Shown: in pieces, positions 231-22,603 of the stretch
Numbering within the stretch: position 1 is the stretch's first letter
How the letters are laid out: each line of letters starts with the position of its first letter
From: an uncultured Heliomicrobium sp.
Lineage (GTDB): Bacteria; Acidobacteriota; Blastocatellia; RBC074
Length of the DNA: 64,000 nucleotides
Assembly: GCA_964470555.1 (NCBI GenBank)
Contig: CAYYDG010000002.1
Span: 81,050-145,049, forward strand
Direction: 5' to 3'
Position numbers and translations under genes: made by a program
Notes under the pieces: generated by a model
What the model was told of the DNA's origin: nothing
The model's input: the letters and a program-made list of their open reading frames with translations, nothing else
Database searches by the model: none

Positions 231-1463
231 TTAAAACGCAATCAGCGAATCCTGCTCGTCAAACAGATTTACAGGTTTGCCGAGGATTTCGACGCGATCA
301 CGAATTTCTTCCAGCGCCGCCGCCGACACATACACTTCGCTGACGTGCAGCGTGTCTTTGATGCGAACTATTTTTTTTGGCTTGTGCGGATCGTGGCTGG
401 CGCGAATGCCCCAATCGAATGCTTGCCGGTCGTTGGCGGCGACTATCGGCAGCATGAAATGTTCATAAAAACCGCTGGTGACGCCGTTCATGTAAGTCGC
501 GTCCCAATCAATCTTGTCTCTCAACCTGCGAGTCGCCACATCCGCCAAACCTATGCCGCAAGCATTGCCGTGTGAAGCTTCGGTCAGGTCTGTGATGACT
601 ATGACTTTGACGCGCGGCGATTCGGCATCGTGTTCGCCTCGAATTCGCATGCGTCCAATGACGTTCGGATCCATGCCTGAACCGCTTATGTCTTTGCCGA
701 TCTGGTCAACGACCAGCACGTCCACATCTTCAATCGGCAAGCTGGGAATCATTTTTTTTGCTATGGCCAGCAACTGCGGTTCGCGCGTCAGAATCTGCGC
801 CGGAGTCATGGCTTCGATGATCGCAGTTTCGTCATAAGCGTTTTCGACAATGCCTACGCCGAGCAGAACTTTTCCGGTCGCCAATACGCGCTTGGCGGCT
901 TCGGGCATCAAGGTTTTCAACCCGTAGACTCCAAAGCGATGAATTTCCGACGCCAGTCGTTCTTTGCCCAATCCGATGATGCTCATTTTCATCAAACCGC
1001 TTTCGTAATCCCCGTGAAACGCCGTGTGCGGTTTGATGCGGTTGACCAGAATCACACCGTCAGATTCGTAAGCGTGTTTGTCCATAAACAGCGGTAATTC
1101 CAATCCACCGCGGTCCAGTTCGACGACTTCCATCGAAGAGCGCACCGGACAGCCCATCGCTGTTTCTGTGATGCCGTAAGACGCCAGAATTTCGCGCTGT
1201 CCTTCGCCCGTCGCTCCGCCGTGACTACCCATTGCCGGAACGATGAATGGTTCGGCTCCCTGTGCTTTGACGGCATCGGCCACCGCTTTGGTGATGCGGG
1301 CGATGTTGGCTATGCCGCGGCTGCCGGAAGCGATGGCGATTCGCGCCCCGGGTTTGAAGCGGACTTTGCCGGGATGAATTTGTTCGGCGACGGCTCGCTC
1401 GATGTCGGTGATGACCTGTCGCTCAAATTGCTGGCGGATTTTGGTGAAGAGGTAGTTGTTCAT
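231..1463 (-). CDS. LarA-like / DUF2088 (lactate racemase N-terminal domain) family protein
   Basis: 410-aa ORF. Gly-rich and His motifs (AMGSHGG, KPHTAFHGDYESG) resemble the nickel-pincer LarA family. No search was run. Confidence 0.5.
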   Translation of the reverse strand: MNNYLFTKIRQQFERQVITDIERAVAEQIHPGKVRFKPGARIAIASGSRGIANIARITKAVADAVKAQGAEPFIVPAMGSHGGATGEGQREILASYGITETAMGCPVRSSMEVVELDRGGLELPLFMDKHAYESDGVILVNRIKPHTAFHGDYESGLMKMSIIGLGKERLASEIHRFGVYGLKTLMPEAAKRVLATGKVLLGVGIVENAYDETAIIEAMTPAQILTREPQLLAIAKKMIPSLPIEDVDVLVVDQIGKDISGSGMDPNVIGRMRIRGEHDAESPRVKVIVITDLTEASHGNACGIGLADVATRRLRDKIDWDATYMNGVTSGFYEHFMLPIVAANDRQAFDWGIRASHDPHKPKKIVRIKDTLHVSEVYVSAAALEEIRDRVEILGKPVNLFDEQDSLIAF

Positions 1464-1527
1464 GTCGAGGTTTAAGAGGTAAGCGGACGTTTACAAGGTT
1501 GGTAAAGGTAGAGACAGCCCTTTTACT

Positions 1528-1761
1528 TTATGCTGCTGCAAGTTGAGACAGGCTCTCAAAATAGCGGCGGTGAGTTTGCCGCAACGCTGCTTCAGAAGCT
1601 GCCTCCAGAAGAATGACCTCATGCTCTATACCCAGACGATTCAATCTGAGTTCCATATCAAGTCGGGAACTTTCTGCTTTGTGTCGTTCAATGTCACTGA
1701 ATTTCTCGAACGTGACTATCTGACCTTCTTTGCGATTGTATTCAATTAGAAAAATCATCAC
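1528..1761 (-). CDS. small hypothetical protein, translationally coupled to the upstream RelA/SpoT-domain gene (candidate antitoxin)
   Basis: 77-aa ORF. Its start overlaps the stop of the 1758..2456 gene by 4 nt (ATGA). It shares the low-GC (about 42%) block with that gene. No recognisable domain. Confidence 0.4.
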   Translation of the reverse strand: MMIFLIEYNRKEGQIVTFEKFSDIERHKAESSRLDMELRLNRLGIEHEVILLEAASEAALRQTHRRYFESLSQLAAA

Positions 1762-2456
1762 TGTTTCCTCAGCATTTCTATGTTGTTAAGAGTGTCACGG
1801 AGTGATTCAAGCATACGCAATCTGACTAAATCCAGTTCTTCACGTAAATTCAAGTCTACTTGCGTCTCCAGTAGTTCCTCAGTGGCAATGATAGAAGATT
1901 GGTTGGTCAATACAGTTCGAGTGAATTCATCACCTCCGCCGTACTTTACCATCGGATCAAAAATGTCAGAAAATTTTTCAGATAGCTCCGCCCAAAGTTG
2001 TTGTAGCGCTGTACGAACCTGAACCTCGATCAATTTTCTGTCGTGTTTCACAACAACGTGAACAGCACGATAGCCGTGACTCGGTTGTTGGCGGCGATCA
2101 ATGATGGTTATATCTTCAAAAAGCCCACTGAGTGATTTTACGACTTCGTCTTGGCTTGTAATGTCCGCCACAATGATTCGGCAGCCTGCAATGTCTTGAA
2201 TTTGCGTCAGACGAATGCTTTCTCTGCGGAGCTTTTCGGTGATGGATGTCGTGGATTTCGCAGGACGGCCAGTCGGGGACAATGACAAGTCCTTCCTGAT
2301 TTTTTCAACGACGGATTCGTAAGCTTCAGAGTACGAACGGCGATATCGATCGAGCATTCGCAAATCATCTTCGCTGATGTTTCCTTTCTTCAGTCTGTCG
2401 CCCAGGCGATCAATTTGAGATTTCGAAATTTCTTCAGCCATATATCGTCTTTGCAA
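1758..2456 (-). CDS. RelA/SpoT-domain protein (small alarmone synthetase-like nucleotidyltransferase; possible toxSAS)
   Basis: Synthetase-domain signature ...IQDIAGCRIIV...HGYRAVHVVV...IEVQVRTALQQLWAE, with an N-terminal LGDRLKKG...LDRYR region. Low GC relative to flanks. Confidence 0.8.
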   Translation of the reverse strand: MQRRYMAEEISKSQIDRLGDRLKKGNISEDDLRMLDRYRRSYSEAYESVVEKIRKDLSLSPTGRPAKSTTSITEKLRRESIRLTQIQDIAGCRIIVADITSQDEVVKSLSGLFEDITIIDRRQQPSHGYRAVHVVVKHDRKLIEVQVRTALQQLWAELSEKFSDIFDPMVKYGGGDEFTRTVLTNQSSIIATEELLETQVDLNLREELDLVRLRMLESLRDTLNNIEMLRKQ

Positions 2457-2480
2457 GTGTCAGAAGAAGTGACATCCGGT

Positions 2481-3365
2481 TCATTTTCCGCTTCGCTCTT
2501 TCTGAAGCTGGTCGTTATAGCTCTTTTCAAACCCGGCGATGTAATTGCGAAAGCCTTCGGGATCAATAAACGGGTTGGTCTTGGGATCGGCGTTCATGCG
2601 CGCGACCTTCGCTTCCATATCGAAAAAGGGAGCATGCGGCCCCAAAAACACATCGCAGGGAAGCGATTTCAGTTTCTGAAACGATTTGGCATACGCATCG
2701 GCAATCGTCGCCCAGGTTGGGTTGTTGACCATCTTGACGCCGGGATTGATGGACATGCTGGCGGCAAAGACCACTTCGTATTTTTTGCCGTTTTCTTCAA
2801 CCGTCGTTGTCCAGGTGGTGTTGCCTTCGGTGTGTCCGGGCGTCAGATGCGCTCGCAGCGCGATGCTGCCCAGCCGAACGATTTCGCCGTCTTTGATGAT
2901 CCGATCCACTTTGACCGGTTTGAACGGATTGAGCGGATGAAAACCTTTGGTTCCGCCGCTTTCCAGCGCCAGCGCGTCCGCTGCCGAAGCAATGACCTGC
3001 GCGCCGGTGGCGGCTTTCATATCGGCGTGACCGGCGACGTGATCGAAATGCGCGTGGCTGGACAAAATCATGCGAACGTATTTCAGCTTGTAGCCCAGCG
3101 ATTCGATGTTGGCGCGAATGATCGGAGCCGATTCCTGCATGGCAGTGTCAATCAGCACGTAACCGGCAGGAGACGTAATCAGGAAACACGCCAGATTGTT
3201 CGTGCCGACATAATGGATGTTGCCGATGATGCGAAACGGCTTGAATGGTTGATTCCAAGAATCCAGCAGAGATTGTTGATCGTAAAGATTTTGAGTTTTT
3301 GCCGGAAGAGAAACGAACGCCAGACAAATGAAGACGACTGGAACGATCAGGCTGCGCCATTTCAT
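2481..3365 (-). CDS. subclass B3 metallo-beta-lactamase family protein (secreted)
   Basis: N-terminal signal peptide. HxHxDH motif (SSHAHFDHVAG) plus downstream His (TPGHTEG, GPHAPF), typical of B3 MBL-fold hydrolases. Confidence 0.75.
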   Translation of the reverse strand: MKWRSLIVPVVFICLAFVSLPAKTQNLYDQQSLLDSWNQPFKPFRIIGNIHYVGTNNLACFLITSPAGYVLIDTAMQESAPIIRANIESLGYKLKYVRMILSSHAHFDHVAGHADMKAATGAQVIASAADALALESGGTKGFHPLNPFKPVKVDRIIKDGEIVRLGSIALRAHLTPGHTEGNTTWTTTVEENGKKYEVVFAASMSINPGVKMVNNPTWATIADAYAKSFQKLKSLPCDVFLGPHAPFFDMEAKVARMNADPKTNPFIDPEGFRNYIAGFEKSYNDQLQKERSGK

Positions 3366-3508
3366 GGAGTGCTCCTTTCTGAAGCGATGACGGGTTGGAC
3401 AACGATTGAGTTTGCGGAAACGTGATTATGGATGAAGCTTACGACTCTTTTCCAGCATTTCAGATGTCGCGCGAAAAGAATTTTGGAATGAATGAAGAAC
3501 GATGAAGA

Positions 3509-3907
3509 TCAAGATTGACGACGTTGAATCAGGTCCCACAAGTTGCCGTACAAATCCTCGAAGACGGCGACCGTACCGTAAGTTTCCTCCTTCGGTTCGC
3601 GGATGAATTTGATTCCGAGCGAAATCATTTCTCGATAATCGCGCCAGAAATCGTCGGTTTGCAGAAACAGAAAAACGCGCCCGCCTGATTGGTTGCCGAT
3701 GAACTTCGCTTGTTCCGGTGTAGCGGCGCGCGCCAGGAGCAAGGTCGTTTCGCTCGATCCAGGCGGAGCGACCACGACCCAGCGTTTGTTTTGTTCGGGC
3801 TGATAAGTGTCTTCGACCAGTGTGAAATGAAGCTTCTGCGTGTAAAACGCAATCGCTTCGTCGTAATCGCGAACGACCAGTGCGATATGGGCAATGGATT
3901 GATTCAT
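3509..3907 (-). CDS. VOC family protein (glyoxalase/bleomycin-resistance fold)
   Basis: 132 aa with the typical VOC N-terminus (IAHIALVVRDYDEAIAFYTQKLHF) and C-terminal YGNLWDL. Confidence 0.8.
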   Translation of the reverse strand: MNQSIAHIALVVRDYDEAIAFYTQKLHFTLVEDTYQPEQNKRWVVVAPPGSSETTLLLARAATPEQAKFIGNQSGGRVFLFLQTDDFWRDYREMISLGIKFIREPKEETYGTVAVFEDLYGNLWDLIQRRQS

Positions 3908-4395: not shown

Positions 4396-5220
4396 TCAGA
4401 AACTGATTTCTTCAATCACATCCAGATTGAGCGTAACGCCAGTGGGAATTTCGTTGTCATCCAGTTCGCTCAAATCTCCTGGCGTTTCGCCACGTTCGCA
4501 TAATGAACGATAGGCGCAAAATCGGCAGCGACGTTCCACCGTCGTCAACTCAAAGCGTGAACTGGCCGTGATTTCCTGCAACAATGATGTCAAACGCGCC
4601 TCGGCCTGTTGCAATGTCTCCGCGGTTTGAAGAAATTCGACCGTTTCGCCGGTTTCGGCAAACCAATATACGAACCGAATTCGTTCCGGCGGAATCGGCT
4701 TGTTGCCGTTCAACCAACCGCCCGCTTTGGCCAGCACAAACGGATAGACCAGCGTCTGCATACGATTGGCCAGCCAATCCCGTTTTTGCGGGCGACCGGT
4801 TTTCCAATCCACGATCAAGACGGTTTCGTCGGCGAGTTTGGCGACGACATCGTATTTGGCCATCAACATCCATTCGCCAATCGAAGCCGTCAGCGTCAAT
4901 TCGGGATACCGTTCGGCGGGAAGGTTCGCCGTTTGCCAGTTCAAATACCGTTGCCACCAGACGCGCAATTCGTCGTCAGTAATGGTCGGCGTCAGCGTTT
5001 CCGCCGGAACGCCCAGCGCATGTTGATGCGCCAGATGATGAAACGCCTGTCCCTGTTGCTGGCCGGCTTCGTATTGCAACGCCTGCGCGGTTTCCTGCGC
5101 CGGCCAGCGCACATCAAGCAAATACCGCAATTCAAACCGGCGCGGACAATCTGCGTAATCCTGCAACGCGCTCTGGCTGAAGACGAATTCGTCAAACCGG
5201 CTGTCTTGATTATCGGACAT
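4396..5220 (-). CDS. PD-(D/E)XK nuclease family protein, Cas4/AddB-like with 4-Cys Fe-S cluster motif
   Basis: N-terminal Cys ([12 protein letters not shown]) plus C-terminal [10 protein letters not shown] (C-x2-C-x5-C), the Cas4/AddB iron-sulfur arrangement. Core ...VDWKTG...K... nuclease motif. Overlaps the upstream helicase gene stop by 11 bp. Confidence 0.75.
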
Positions 5221-7417
5221 CGTCGTGGCCTCCGTTGATTTTGGCGTTCAGGTGCGCCAGCGGACGGGCAGGGAACAGGTCGGCTTTTTTGCCCGTGTTC
5301 CAGGTGACGATCAATTCGCGTTTGGCGCGCGTGATGCCAACGTAAAGCAATCGCAAACGTTCGGAGCAATACTCTATGCGCGCTTGTTCGCTGGCTTCGC
5401 CTTCGCGGTAGGCATCGCCGGTTTTCAAGGCTTTCAACTGCGCCAGAGCTTCGGCGCTCAGATTCAAGTTGTCGCGCGCAAAGTAACCCTCGCTTTGAAA
5501 TTGGTCGTTGGCGTCCATCGAAGGGAAATCGTAATTGTTGACCGACATCAGATAGACGCGATCCCATTCCAATCCTTTGGCTTTGTGATGCGTGATGACG
5601 ACGGCCTGCCCTTTGTAGCTGGTCGGATCGAATTGGTCGTCGTCTTCGCCCAGGCCCGTGAATTTGCGATTGTTGCGAACGATCTGGCCGAGTTCGACCA
5701 CGCAATCCGGCAAACGAAATTCGGGGTTGGTTTCGACAAAGCTGCGCAAATGAACGGCGATGCTGTACGCCGTGGCGATTTCGGCGGGTTCTTTGAACAG
5801 GTCGCTGCCGATCGTCAACACCAGTTGATCAATCGGCAACAGCGCGGCGTTTTGCCATCGCTGCACACAAGCGCGAAAACGTTCCAGCGTCTCGAACTTT
5901 TCCGGTTCGCTCGACGCGTTGCGCGCATCCAGCAACCAGTCTTTGTCGCGCGGAGCCGTGAACTGTTCCACCTGTTTCAGCTTTTTCAGTTGATTGATGG
6001 CTTCGGTCATTTCCGCCGAATCGCGTTCGTCGCGCAAAAACACTGAAAAAGCCTTACTGAGTTTTCCGGCGTCGGTTGGCGAAGCCAGAAAGTCCGCCAG
6101 GTGAAAAAGCGCGCGGGCGACTTCGCGTGTGGAAGTTGTGGTTCGCAAGACTTCGACGTGCGGAATTTGCAGCGACTGCAACAACTCGCCCATCTTTGCG
6201 CCGTTGGCGTTGGTGGGCAGCAACAGCGCCACTGTGCTTTCAGGATTTTTCTGAAGCCACGCGCGAACGGATTTGGCGACGTCTTCGCGTTCTTTTTCGG
6301 AGCTTCGTCGTTCGTCGAACATGAACTTGACGTTGTTGTCAGTGTCCGGCGGGTTGTTGTCGGCAGCTTGAATAAACGGCGGAGCAAGAGGCTGTTTCGC
6401 GCGAATTTGAGCGTTCGGATGTTTCAATGACCAGCGAATCAGATGGTTTGCCGTGTCAATGATGCGTGGCGCGCTGCGTCCGCTTTCGGGCAATTCACGC
6501 GCAACCACGCCGGATTCCGTCAAAAAGTTTCGCAAGTAATCCGGGCTGGCTGTCGTGAAGGTTTCGTAAATCGCCTGGTTCGGATCGCCCACACGAACCC
6601 AGTTTCCGGCTTCACCGGCCAGTTTCCGCAAAATCTGTTCTTGCAACTGACTGCTGTCCTGCGCTTCGTCTTCCAGAATGTACGGCCAGCGATGTTGCAA
6701 CGTCGCCAGATAATCGGGCGATGCTTCCAGCACATCCAGCGCCAGACGAATCAAGTCTTGAAAATCCACTCCGCCACGATATTGCAACGCTCGTTGGTAG
6801 GATTCGTAAACGTTGACGCACATTTCCGCCAACGGCAGCGATTGCCTCGTAGCCGTAAGCTCATCGTGAAGTTCGCCCGGACGCCAGCGAAAGTCTTTGG
6901 CTTTCTGAATCACTTCCAGCGCGATGTCCGTAGCCTTTTCTCGCCACTGCCAACGCGATTTGTCTTTTGCTTGATGATCCGGACTCAAATACTCTTCCAC
7001 GCCGAATTCACGGTGTGCGCTGAACCACGCGGCGACGGCGTCGGTGATGATGGCTTTGGCTTCGAACTCATCCACGATCTGAAAATCATCCGCCAATCCG
7101 ACCAGGCCCGGTCGTTCACTGACGATGTCGTTGGCCAATCCGTGCAATGTGCGAACTCGATAGAGCGTGCCCAGATTGCCTTCGCCCAAAAAGCCGCGCA
7201 CGGTTTGATCGAATTTGCTGCGCGCGGAATTGACCAGCGTGACAATCAGAATTTGCTGGCCGCGTTGCAAATTGGCTTCGCGGACGAGCTTGGCGGCCAG
7301 CGCCGACAACGTAGTCGTTTTGCCGCTGCCCGGCACAGCCGACACACCCATCTTGCCGCCGGAGTATTCCAGCACGCGAGCCTGGCTTGGGCGCGGTTTG
7401 AAATTGAGTTCAGGCAT
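5210..7417 (-). CDS. UvrD/Rep-type superfamily I DNA helicase
   Basis: Walker [30 protein letters not shown] and [13 protein letters not shown] motifs in UvrD order. 735 aa. Confidence 0.85.
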
Positions 7418-22411: not shown

Positions 22412-22446
22412 GAAAATAGCAATGTCTAGGTATTTATCAAAACTGA

Positions 22447-22537
<91 letters not shown>

Positions 22538-22603
22538 GTAACGTTGTGCATTGTCTTCATCGAACCGCAGACTGTCAACACATCGCACAAGAAATTCCCA
22601 TAG

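Follow-up and report, generated by a model that had tools for sequence, protein, structure and literature searches.

A bicistronic gene pair from an uncultured acidobacterium as a putative tRNA-targeting toxin-antitoxin module of the PhRel/CapRel clade of toxSAS

Introduction

Among the toxin-antitoxin (TA) systems based on toxic small alarmone synthetases (toxSAS) that have been characterised to date, that of Mycobacterium phage Phrann consists of the toxin PhRel (gp29) and of gp30, which neutralises it (PMC7229694), and a role in phage defence has been described both for Phrann gp29/gp30 and for the fused CapRels (PMC7229694, PMC9712102). PhRel and CapRel are specific inhibitors of translation, and FaRel2 and PhRel2 pyrophosphorylate the CCA end of tRNA (bioRxiv 2021.04.30.441581); tRNAs are likewise pyrophosphorylated by CapRelSJ46 (PMC9712102), and PhRel binds tRNA with a Kd of 825 nM (PMC11782079). 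In CapRelSJ46, the adenine site is blocked by a YXXY motif (PMC9712102), and inhibition of split CapRel and of PhRel is predicted to occur via the donor site (PMC11782079). The antitoxin of unfused CapRel is homologous to that of PhRel (PMC7229694, PMC9712102). Acidobacteria and Planctomycetes are already among the phyla with translation-targeting toxSAS in published work.

Here, a two-gene locus is described from a window of 64,000 nucleotides, the whole stretch of DNA analysed, derived from an uncultured member of the Acidobacteriota (contig CAYYDG010000002.1). The initial annotation had proposed a toxSAS-antitoxin-like module, and this proposal was supported by a gp29-like toxin (E 5e-21) and a gp30-like partner (E 2.4e-9), found paired in 77/77 loci. 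Together, the sequence comparisons suggest, with a probability of about 0.8, that the two genes make up an unfused, bicistronic TA module of type II, belonging to the PhRel/CapRel clade of toxSAS and with tRNA as its putative target.

Organization of the gene pair and its genomic context

The coordinates of the two genes, of their alternative starts and of the junction between them are given in Table 1. In the public gene calls, the end of the toxin gene and the start of the antitoxin gene fall on the same base. The stop/start overlap reported initially is therefore real in that the genes do overlap, but it is not a plain ATGA, the first TGA of a TGATGA junction being the genuine stop. The GAGGA motif preceding the antitoxin start would permit strong, coupled translation of the antitoxin; the 39-nt spacer that leads up to the toxin gene contains no comparable motif. 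The small open reading frame is not a chance ORF, since it has 115 word-indexed homologs and 1217 homologous representatives of 50%-identity clusters at E<=1e-3.

Table 1. Features of the gene pair and its junction (positions in the window).
Feature	Position	Strand	Remarks
Putative toxSAS toxin gene	1758..2441	(-)	227 aa from ATG 2441; public gene calls and identical database protein P0001
Toxin long ORF	1758..2456	(-)	232 aa from TTG 2456
Antitoxin gene	1528..1758	(-)	76 aa from ATG 1758; identical to P0121
Antitoxin long ORF	1528..1761	(-)	77 aa from GTG 1761
Gene junction G-TGA-TGA	1755..1761	(-)	coding strand reads caG TGA TGA ttt
Toxin stop (first TGA)	1760-1758	(-)	
Antitoxin ATG	1758-1756	(-)	1-nt overlap with toxin stop
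Alternative antitoxin GTG	1761-1759	(-)	4-nt GTGA overlap
Second in-frame TGA at junction	1757-1755	(-)	
GAGGA Shine-Dalgarno-like motif	1766..1770	(-)	within toxin 3' end; 7 nt 5' of antitoxin ATG
39-nt spacer	2442..2480	(-)	between stop of metallo-beta-lactamase-fold (MBL) gene (TGA 2483-2481) and toxin ATG

The pair has a GC content of 45.0%, compared with 53.7% in the 4-kb flanks and 53.2% in the whole window, and GC dips to 41-45% in 400-nt windows over the pair; the contrast with the neighbouring genes noted at the outset thus holds, but the figure of about 42% then given for the block was slightly low. The upstream neighbour is a metallo-beta-lactamase-fold (MBL) gene, and a Lar_N-like gene also adjoins the pair. 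A promoter and terminator scan of positions 1300-3600 did not exceed shuffled sequence in its number of sites and placed none ahead of the toxin gene; no consensus promoter was detected in the 39-nt spacer, and the only two sigma-70-like matches, 3454-3425 and 2162-2135, fall upstream of the MBL gene and within the toxin gene, respectively. A 34-nt imperfect direct repeat (1568-1601 and 2477-2510, 74% identical), considered as an insertion scar, was attributed to chance, as 8/100 shuffles gave an equal score. No phage, integrase or defence-island genes occur within about 7 kb of the pair. A flanking UvrD-like helicase and PD-(D/E)XK nuclease give only generic, partial GajB and Cas4 matches in PADLOC, too little for a defence island to be called. 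The pair sits singly in an acidobacterial chromosome, among housekeeping genes.

The toxin

The toxin consists of an N-terminal helical region, a RelA_SpoT (toxSYNTH) domain and a C-terminal helical hairpin. RelA_SpoT is the sole Pfam domain (PF04607, E 4.9e-16, residues 66-157), with no HD hydrolase, TGS or ACT domain found in Pfam, and the catalytic residues R59, K62, D83, R88, Y124, E139 and Q141 are invariant in the toxin family, in agreement with the initial description of a complete synthetase signature without hydrolase or regulatory domains. In the alignment, R88 corresponds to R116 of CapRel, and Y124, the G-loop tyrosine, to Y155 of CapRel and Y143 of PhRel.

Over its length, the toxin shares 31% identity with Phrann gp29 across 91% of the sequence (pairwise BLASTP E 5e-21), and gp29 is the top match in the phage collection (tblastn E 5e-14). 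The toxin family HMM gives 86 bits for gp29 and 43 bits for CapRelSJ46. The PADLOC profile PDC-S33 (fused CapRel), for which a literature search with the term 'PDC-S33' found no paper, matches the toxin with 109 bits (E 7.7e-32) over positions 4-246 of 349, that is, over the N-terminal 70% of the profile, CapRelSJ46 itself scoring 290 bits over the full profile length. In Foldseek comparison of the AF2 model (pLDDT 89.3) with the PDB, query coverage is highest for CapRel (TMq 0.65-0.67 over 239-240 columns; 9erv_A, the best-covering match, 0.67 over 240), whereas RelQ and RelP reach TMq 0.46-0.57 over about 193 columns.

A comparison with housekeeping enzymes of the RelP/RelQ type, suggested at the outset as a check, did not overturn the toxSAS assignment: the NCBIfam equivalog for RelQ (YjbM; NF053588, GTPPhKinYjbM) gives 34.6 bits against a cutoff of 320, and RelQ alignments are confined to the catalytic core (residues 62-161). 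Similarity of the core was rejected as a means of separating the toxin from RelQ, since the core alone is about equally close to RelQ and to gp29 (55.8 bits and 36% identity for Bacillus subtilis RelQ, 60.8 bits for gp29 and 43.5 for CapRelSJ46). Assignment to the clade accordingly depends on the two terminal regions of the protein, on PDC-S33 and on the partner gene.

The antitoxin

The initial annotation had seen no recognisable family in the small partner, and indeed no Pfam or NCBIfam family was found, including any HD or SAH domain; it is nevertheless a homolog of gp30 (ATphRel), with further matches to phrog_22117 in PHROGs (E 1e-9) and to the C-terminal positions 265-332 of PDC-S33 (E 1.9e-4). 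Its family profile aligns with gp30 with a probability of 96.2% (hhalign E 2.4e-9), the family HMM detects gp30 at E 2e-11, and direct BLASTP comparison gives 32% identity over the full length (E 1e-4). In Corynebacterium phage IME1320_01 and in a Pasteurella phage, the antitoxin matches an ORF directly downstream of a SAS gene. Homology of the partner to gp30/ATphRel, and to the antitoxin domain at the C-terminus of fused CapRel, makes the pair a probable member of an already characterised toxSAS clade and no new pairing. At an identity to gp29 of only about 31%, it could carry either the PhRel or the CapRel subfamily label.

The AF2 model of the antitoxin (pLDDT 92.1) has a beta-beta-alpha-beta-alpha topology, and this predicted arrangement of three strands, a helix between strands 2 and 3 and a C-terminal helix matches that of the CapRel pseudo-ZFD (PMC9712102). 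A Foldseek search of the model against the PDB gave nothing significant (the CapRel chains, ranked second and fifth, have E values near 2), and the structural homology of the antitoxin therefore rests on topology and sequence. The profile match to the C-terminal domain of CapRelSJ46 is weak (hhalign E 0.0095, probability 4%; HMM 7.4 bits).

Towards its C-terminal end, the protein has a T-H-R-R-Y-F motif at residues 62-67, in which T62, H63, R65, Y66 and F67 are invariant among 52 sequences (motif entropy 0.12 bits). HRRYF aligns with YPNYF of CapRelSJ46 and THSRYF of gp30, the first residue of the motif being His and not Tyr in the antitoxin, as it also is in gp30. Entropy stays at 0.1-0.6 bits across beta1, beta3, helix 2 and HRRYF but reaches 1.6-1.9 bits across beta2, helix 1 and tail, a pattern of sequence conservation that fits a constant neutralising face combined with a variable sensing face.

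Conservation and distribution of the pair

Conservation of the small ORF downstream of SAS homologs, also proposed initially as a check, was confirmed across 80 fetched loci, 77 of which are informative in having sequence beyond the SAS stop: in 77/77, representing about ten phyla, the SAS gene is followed immediately by an antitoxin gene of the same orientation. The genes overlap in 53 of the 77 (28 by 17 nt, 20 by 4 nt and 4 by 1 nt) and are separated by 0-30 nt in 19. In 76/76 loci the pair is poorer in GC than the sequence around it, the mean difference being 9.7 points, and such constantly low GC is as expected for a horizontally mobile module. Neighbouring genes differ between genomes, and neither a conserved third gene nor a conserved chromosomal position was found in the window and three other genomes. 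The two genes are thus inherited strictly as a pair, in unrelated contexts and in many phyla.

The sole syntenic relative among the 80 loci (L009) contains the pair, with 72-75% amino-acid identity as against 87-88% for the flanks, and none of the 80 loci is an empty site in which the MBL and Lar_N-like genes directly adjoin each other. More than 3000 SAS homologs were found at E<=1e-5; the 120 listed are 198-312 aa long with RelA_SpoT as sole recorded domain. A scan with the GYRAVH pattern gave 244 relatives among 185,579 species (one genome each), in a patchy distribution. The modules form a large bipartite family found mostly in soil bacteria.

Proposed mode of action and alternative explanations

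From what is known of its characterised relatives, the toxin would pyrophosphorylate the 3'-CCA of tRNA, and the modification would block aminoacylation and so halt translation. tRNA is put forward as the probable substrate by clade alone, since the literature gives no clear sequence signature for tRNA-targeting toxSAS (bioRxiv 2021.04.30.441581). The antitoxin, again as in the relatives, would bind the toxin in trans and may insert its beta3-helix2-H63xxY66-F segment, the counterpart of the CapRel YXXY, into the ATP (pyrophosphate-donor) site, and the gene overlap together with a good Shine-Dalgarno motif for the antitoxin alone could keep the antitoxin in excess. More speculatively, beta2, helix 1 and the tail, which form the variable face of the antitoxin, might bind a phage protein during infection; the toxin would then be freed and the infection aborted, by analogy with CapRelSJ46, and a phage protein would be the probable trigger. 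It is possible, at somewhat less than even odds, that the family acts as an in-trans CapRel-type sensor whose hypervariable beta2/helix-1 face binds a phage structural protein directly, which would draw the antitoxin away from the toxin and so release tRNA pyrophosphorylation. The conservation pattern, the faster divergence than the flanks and the homology to a sensor domain allow such a sensor, but do not demonstrate it.

The same module could instead work as a selfish addiction or stress module of the PhRel type that senses no phage, being activated by proteolysis of a labile antitoxin or by transcriptional imbalance. Such a role would suit the lack of prophage or defence-island context in the window and in three other genomes, as well as the low GC and scattered phyletic distribution, which fit any selfish mobile module, and the literature names no trigger for the unfused PhRel systems, Phrann included. 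On the other hand, defence against phages is an activity of Phrann gp29/gp30 and of the fused CapRels. Moreover, a compact, well-folded structure is predicted for the antitoxin (pLDDT 92), unlike a disordered, proteolysis-prone antitoxin, and the variable positions are grouped on a single set of its structural elements, as they are in the sensor domain of CapRel. The pair has also diverged faster than its flanks in the sole syntenic relative, and an addiction module is regarded as rather unlikely, though it is the likeliest of the alternatives.

Other explanations concern the reaction catalysed. A toxSAS resembling FaRel or Tas1 would overproduce (pp)pApp or (p)ppGpp, acting by ATP depletion or an alarmone flood, with the small protein as its inhibitor. 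The generic alarmone-synthetase core, as near to RelQ as to gp29, would be compatible with it, as would a protein that is not markedly basic (pI 5.8 overall, 7.9 for the core), and the published enzymes have no signature separating tRNA-targeting from nucleotide-targeting members (bioRxiv 2021.04.30.441581). It is nonetheless improbable: PhRel gp29 and CapRel, the two validated full-length relatives, act specifically on translation, and the fold of Tas1 matches poorly (TMq 0.36, rank 19). Furthermore, the nucleotide-targeting enzymes FaRel and Tas1 have Tis1-like proteins or SAH hydrolases that neutralise them at the acceptor site, whereas donor-site block by pZFD-type antitoxins is associated with tRNA-targeting enzymes (PMC11782079), and it is a pZFD/ATphRel-type partner that the window toxin has. 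Least probable by far is a housekeeping RelQ/RelP-type SAS making (p)ppGpp for stress signalling next to an unrelated or regulatory small ORF. RelQ and RelP are indeed the top matches among PDB sequences (phmmer places RelQ, E 7e-9, above CapRelSJ46, E 6e-4), the core is 36% identical to that of RelQ, and the JGI annotation of homologs is 'putative GTP pyrophosphokinase'; but the RelQ equivalog score is far under its cutoff (34.6 bits vs 320), and RelQ alignment stops at the core while gp29 and PDC-S33 align over the full length. A housekeeping role would also sit poorly with strict coupling to a gp30-type antitoxin in 77/77 loci, with anomalous GC in 76/76 and no conserved chromosomal position, and with a patchy distribution of 244 relatives among 185,579 species.

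Implications

With the locus read as a PhRel/CapRel-type module, the public labels 'hypothetical protein' and 'putative GTP pyrophosphokinase' can be replaced by a predicted tRNA pyrophosphokinase toxin and a pseudo-zinc-finger antitoxin. Among uncultured Acidobacteriota and in about ten further phyla, unfused PhRel/CapRel pairs are abundant and their architecture is strictly conserved. None of this alters current views of toxSAS biology; its practical value lies in better annotation and in the varied natural antitoxins with which the triggering of bipartite toxSAS can be studied. Should the family prove to be an in-trans sensor, it would offer a tractable model for the triggering of unfused PhRel-type TA systems that does not involve antitoxin proteolysis, and would address a question left by the Phrann and CapRel papers.

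Comparison with known systems

RelQ and RelP share the catalytic fold and motifs of the window toxin, with 36% identity in the core, but they have no cognate antitoxin and their expression is not toxic, whereas the window toxin has a gp30-type partner, and at both of its ends it aligns with toxSAS but not with RelQ. FaRel2-ATfaRel2 of Coprobacillus sp. D7 is bipartite like the window pair, and FaRel2 is translation-targeting. ATfaRel2 is a small folded pZFD-like protein in which a YXXY 3-10 helix blocks the ATP donor site (PMC11782079), a precedent for neutralisation in trans. FaRel2 is, however, a much weaker fold match to the window toxin (8pu3_C, rank 28, TMq 0.42), and ATfaRel2 is a circular permutant of the CapRel-type domain (PMC11782079), in another toxSAS clade. 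Unfused CapRel-ATcapRel of Mycobacterium sp. AB308, compared by its published description, has the same two-gene layout (PMC7229694, PMC9712102).

In relation to fused CapRel, the window toxin and antitoxin map to consecutive parts of PDC-S33 (4-246 and 265-332 of 349), the CapRel structure also covers the C-terminal 'anchor' helices of the toxin model, and the predicted antitoxin topology equals that of the CapRel pseudo-ZFD. Fused CapRel is a single polypeptide, whereas the window pair comprises two, in separate reading frames with a TGA stop between them; the antitoxin therefore has to neutralise in trans, and for activation the two proteins would have to dissociate, in place of a hinge motion. 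The neutralisation motif is HxxY in the window antitoxin and YxxY in CapRel. Classification as a single-gene fused CapRel (PDC-S33) was thus rejected on account of the TGA stop and frame change; the window pair would work like CapRel without being a fused CapRel.

The Phrann PhRel-ATphRel pair is phage-borne and that of the window chromosomal in an acidobacterium, with no prophage context; gp29 has 292 aa as against 227 aa for the window toxin, whose C-terminal helical region is shorter, and the Phrann genes lie 7 nt apart, whereas those of the window overlap. Both are bicistronic, with the toxin first and an antitoxin of 71-76 aa directly downstream, both antitoxins share FLIE(Y/F)xR...L(K/R)xTHxRYF, and Phrann gp29-gp30 is the closest characterised system for both proteins of the window pair.

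Organization of the gene pair

The two ORFs described in the initial annotation were confirmed, although strand, start codon, junction and GC value each needed a minor correction. On the coding strand the junction reads caG-TGA-TGA-ttt, in which the toxin ends at the first TGA; the antitoxin ATG has its A in common with this stop and runs into another in-frame TGA. The genes therefore overlap, although not as the simple ATGA first proposed. A GAGGA motif is located 7 nt 5' of the antitoxin ATG, and no motif of this type was found in the 39-nt spacer 5' of the toxin ATG. The GC content of the pair is 45.0% versus 53.7% for the 4-kb flanks, that is, below its surroundings as claimed but higher than the 42% originally given. 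RelA_SpoT was the sole Pfam domain in the toxin (E 4.9e-16), and the same search found no HD, TGS or ACT domain, in agreement with the predicted lack of hydrolase and regulatory domains. An imperfect direct repeat of 34 nt (74% identity; 1568-1601 and 2477-2510, 909 nt apart) occurs just 5' of the toxin gene and again within the antitoxin gene, towards its 3' end; it was dismissed as a chance occurrence, 8 of 100 shuffles having scored as high.

Coordinates of the gene pair and neighbouring genes in the window.
Feature	Position	Strand	Remarks
Toxin ORF, long form	1758..2456	-	232 aa, TTG start
Toxin gene, public gene calls	1758..2441	-	ATG at 2441; 227 aa, identical to database protein P0001
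Antitoxin ORF, long form	1528..1761	-	77 aa, GTG start
Antitoxin gene, more probable form	1528..1758	-	ATG start; 76 aa, identical to database protein P0121
UvrD-family helicase	5210-7417	-	735 aa; overlaps nuclease gene by 11 nt
PD-(D/E)XK / Cas4-like nuclease	4396-5220	-	274 aa; ~2 kb upstream of the pair, same strand
410-aa gene	231-1463	-	Immediately downstream of antitoxin; Lar_N 23.0 vs 23.3 bits, DUF362 22.3 vs 24 (just under Pfam cutoffs)
tRNA-Ser (GCT)	22445-22538	-	Sole RNA gene detected in the 64-kb window

Among the neighbouring genes, the helicase and nuclease gave only partial GajB-like matches in PADLOC (best 148 bits, N-terminal half) together with weak Cas4 matches, and their role could lie either in repair, as a helicase-nuclease, or in defence. 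The 410-aa protein, which has no Pfam matches on record in public gene calls, is predicted to be a divergent member of the lactate-racemase-N/DUF362 group. No other Rfam family reached the gathering score in the 64-kb window.

Structure and placement of the toxin

The catalytic residues R59/K62, D83, R88, Y124, E139 and Q141 are all invariant across the family and align with those of characterised enzymes, with R59/K62 representing the RxxK version of the RxK motif, R88 corresponding to CapRel R116, and Y124 to CapRel Y155 and PhRel Y143, the latter being the G-loop tyrosine required for toxicity (PMC7229694). The AlphaFold2 model (pLDDT 89.3, pTM 0.84) consists of a synthetase core flanked by helices at the N-terminus and a helical hairpin at the C-terminus. 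In Foldseek searches against the PDB, CapRel (9erv_A, 7ztb) covered the model most widely (TMq 0.65-0.67, 239-240 columns), whereas RelQ and RelP covered the core only (TMq 0.46-0.57, ~193 columns) and FaRel2 and Tas1 were poorer matches.

Neither RelP nor RelQ, the housekeeping enzymes, is toxic (PMC7229694). A caveat to separating the SAS from this type concerns its catalytic core: taken alone, it is as close to Bacillus subtilis RelQ as to gp29, the PhRel toxin of Mycobacterium phage Phrann (55.8 and 60.8 bits, respectively), and CapRelSJ46, the fused CapRel of Salmonella phage SJ46, is more distant (43.5 bits). Because the core does not discriminate, placement in the PhRel/CapRel clade rests on the parts outside the core, for which gp29 and CapRel, but not RelQ, give alignments, on the PADLOC profile PDC-S33 and on the partner gene. 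A housekeeping role is nevertheless very unlikely in view of the failed NCBIfam RelQ equivalog model (34.6 bits vs a cutoff of 320), the obligate antitoxin partner, the anomalous GC content and the patchy distribution.

PDC-S33 (349 positions) was matched at positions 4-246 by the 232-aa protein (E 7.7e-32) and at positions 265-332 by the 77-aa protein (E 1.9e-4). As CapRelSJ46 spans the profile end to end (290 bits), PDC-S33 represents the fused CapRel family, and since both window proteins match this one profile, the pair is a split version of that family. The best toxin match in the phage collection (tblastn) was gp29 (31% identity, 91% of the query, E 5e-14; pairwise E 5e-21), which the toxin-family HMM scored at 86 bits vs 43 bits for CapRelSJ46; these scores lean towards a PhRel rather than a CapRel label.

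Identity of the antitoxin

The small partner, initially described as having no recognisable family, matches, in addition to PDC-S33, the Phrann antitoxin gp30 (ATphRel), a 71-aa protein encoded right after gp29. The two proteins are 32% identical over their full length (E 1e-4), and gp30 was recovered with a profile of 52 small-protein sequences (hhalign probability 96.2%, E 2.4e-9) and an HMM of 115 (E 2e-11). The two have in common an N-terminal FLIE(Y/F)xR and, near the C-terminus, L(R/K)xTHxRYF, with FFLVR and LKKAYPNYF as the counterparts in CapRelSJ46. The partner can therefore be assigned to a known family, one missing from Pfam and NCBIfam. Matches were also obtained in Corynebacterium phage IME1320_01 and a Pasteurella phage, in each case to the ORF immediately 3' of the SAS gene. 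In Pasteurella phage PMP-GADVASU-IND (KY203335.1; locus L007), an intact 287-codon SAS frame (L007 1234-2094), unannotated in the GenBank record, lies directly 5' of, and overlaps, an annotated small ORF (L007 2024-2278) whose true start is probably ~60 nt 3' of the annotated one.

The AlphaFold2 model of the antitoxin (pLDDT 92.1) comprises strands 2-8 and 13-20, helix 22-42, strand 47-52 and helix 56-62, followed by HRRYF, which is the published topology of the CapRel pseudo-zinc-finger domain (pseudo-ZFD; PMC9712102). Foldseek returned no significant match for this model (CapRel chains at ranks 2 and 5, E ~2), and the structural link to CapRel is therefore topological only. Conservation of the antitoxin is strongly bipartite, with low entropy (0.1-0.6 bits) in β1, β3, helix 2 and HRRYF and high entropy (1.6-1.9 bits) in β2, helix 1, the loop and the tail. 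In the family representatives P0264 (244 aa), P0305 (267 aa), P0350 (244 aa) and P0268-P0270 (169-176 aa), the 76-aa domain is N-terminal in a longer protein; these may be gene-call run-ons, or the domain may be fused to further C-terminal domains that could be alternative sensors.

Distribution and mobility

Searching a single genome from each species with the pattern (P/A)(S/H)(H/S)GYRA(V/M)H(V/L) gave 244 relatives, the best 80 of which were taken further. These 80 came from Acidobacteriota (Pyrinomonadaceae, Blastocatellia, Thermoanaerobaculia and Terriglobia), Nitrospirae, Delta-, Beta- and Gammaproteobacteria, Gemmatimonadota, Chloroflexi, Elusimicrobia, Planctomycetota, Omnitrophota and Methylomirabilota. 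A small-protein homolog (E 1e-26 to 1e-40) was found directly 3' of the SAS gene on the same strand at 77 of the 80 loci, the contig ending at the SAS stop in the other three, so that the small ORF was retained wherever sequence extended beyond that stop (77/77). The junction was an overlap in 53 of these loci and a gap of 0-30 nt in 19, and GC content was below that of the flanks in 76/76 loci (mean difference 9.7 points).

Among the loci compared, flanking genes were common only to the nearest genome, Acidobacteria MAG RBC074 (locus L009; pair at L009 4001-4908), in which the flank proteins (MBL-fold, glyoxalase and Lar_N-like) are 87-88% identical to those of the window, compared with 72% for the toxin and 75% for the antitoxin; the pair at 1528-2441 has either diverged faster than its neighbours or been exchanged. 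In three other genomes its neighbours were housekeeping genes unrelated from one genome to the next; no third gene was conserved, and neither phage nor integrase genes were seen. The window and its source contig present the same picture. Taken together, this is the behaviour of a self-contained unit of two genes that moves horizontally. In the deltaproteobacterial MAG MFD02242.bin.2.64, the pair was present on two contigs (L058 and L059), which agree in gene coordinates and in the scores of both proteins. Loci L037, L041 and L046 belong to MAGs that carry the labels Enterobacteriaceae, Heliobacteriaceae and Klebsiella pneumoniae, yet their toxins have 59-67% identity to the acidobacterial protein; mis-binning of these contigs is likely.

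Proposed function and comparison with known toxSAS systems

The results support the toxSAS-antitoxin-like module of the initial annotation and sharpen it to an unfused PhRel/CapRel-type module, with the 'orphan' partner as a putative ATphRel/pseudo-ZFD antitoxin. Judged by its residues, the toxin is a catalytically intact toxSYNTH enzyme with a gp30-type partner in an obligate, overlapping pairing, and the composition and distribution of the pair are those of a mobile module; its assignment as a toxin-antitoxin system is considered highly probable (about 0.8). Both gp29/gp30 and Mycobacterium CapRel/ATcapRel were validated as toxin-antitoxin pairs (Jimmy et al. 2020, PMC7229694). PhRel, CapRel, FaRel2 and PhRel2 specifically inhibit translation, and pyrophosphorylation of the tRNA 3'-CCA was demonstrated for FaRel2 and PhRel2 (Kurata et al., bioRxiv 2021.04.30.441581). 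The freed toxin domain of CapRelSJ46 also pyrophosphorylates tRNAs (PMC9712102), and PhRel binds tRNA with a Kd of 825 nM (PMC11782079).

By analogy, tRNA is the probable substrate of the window toxin, which when free would use ATP to pyrophosphorylate uncharged tRNA at its 3' adenosine; this modification would stop translation. A nucleotide-targeting toxin like FaRel/Tas1 is possible but disfavoured by the antitoxin type and by the clade to which its closest validated homologs belong. The antitoxin of the PhRel/CapRel-type module would bind the toxin in trans, its HxxY-F segment occupying the ATP-adenine pocket between R59 and R88, and overlapping translation together with a good SD for the antitoxin only may favour antitoxin excess. 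It is conceivable that a phage protein docking on the variable antitoxin face would release the toxin and lead to abortive infection; such direct phage sensing is proposed tentatively, at even odds or somewhat less. A toxin-antitoxin module without a defence role, consistent with the lack of a defence-island or prophage context, is a less likely alternative.

Acidobacteria and Planctomycetes are already among the reported sources of translation-targeting toxSAS subfamilies, and the phylum-level distribution of such modules is already in the literature; the main value of this work is annotation, and the large natural series of bipartite variants provides material on how unfused toxSAS systems are triggered. 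The unfused state is usual for PhRel and actinobacterial CapRel, whereas in the fused CapRelSJ46 the C-terminal pseudo-zinc-finger domain acts as both antitoxin and phage-capsid sensor, its YXXY motif blocking the ATP site (Zhang et al. 2022, PMC9712102). The conserved part of the window antitoxin is the counterpart of the CapRel residues V338, L339, A341, A351, Y352 and Y355, mutation of which renders CapRel constitutively toxic (PMC9712102), and its variable part is the counterpart of the region of CapRel that binds the capsid protein.
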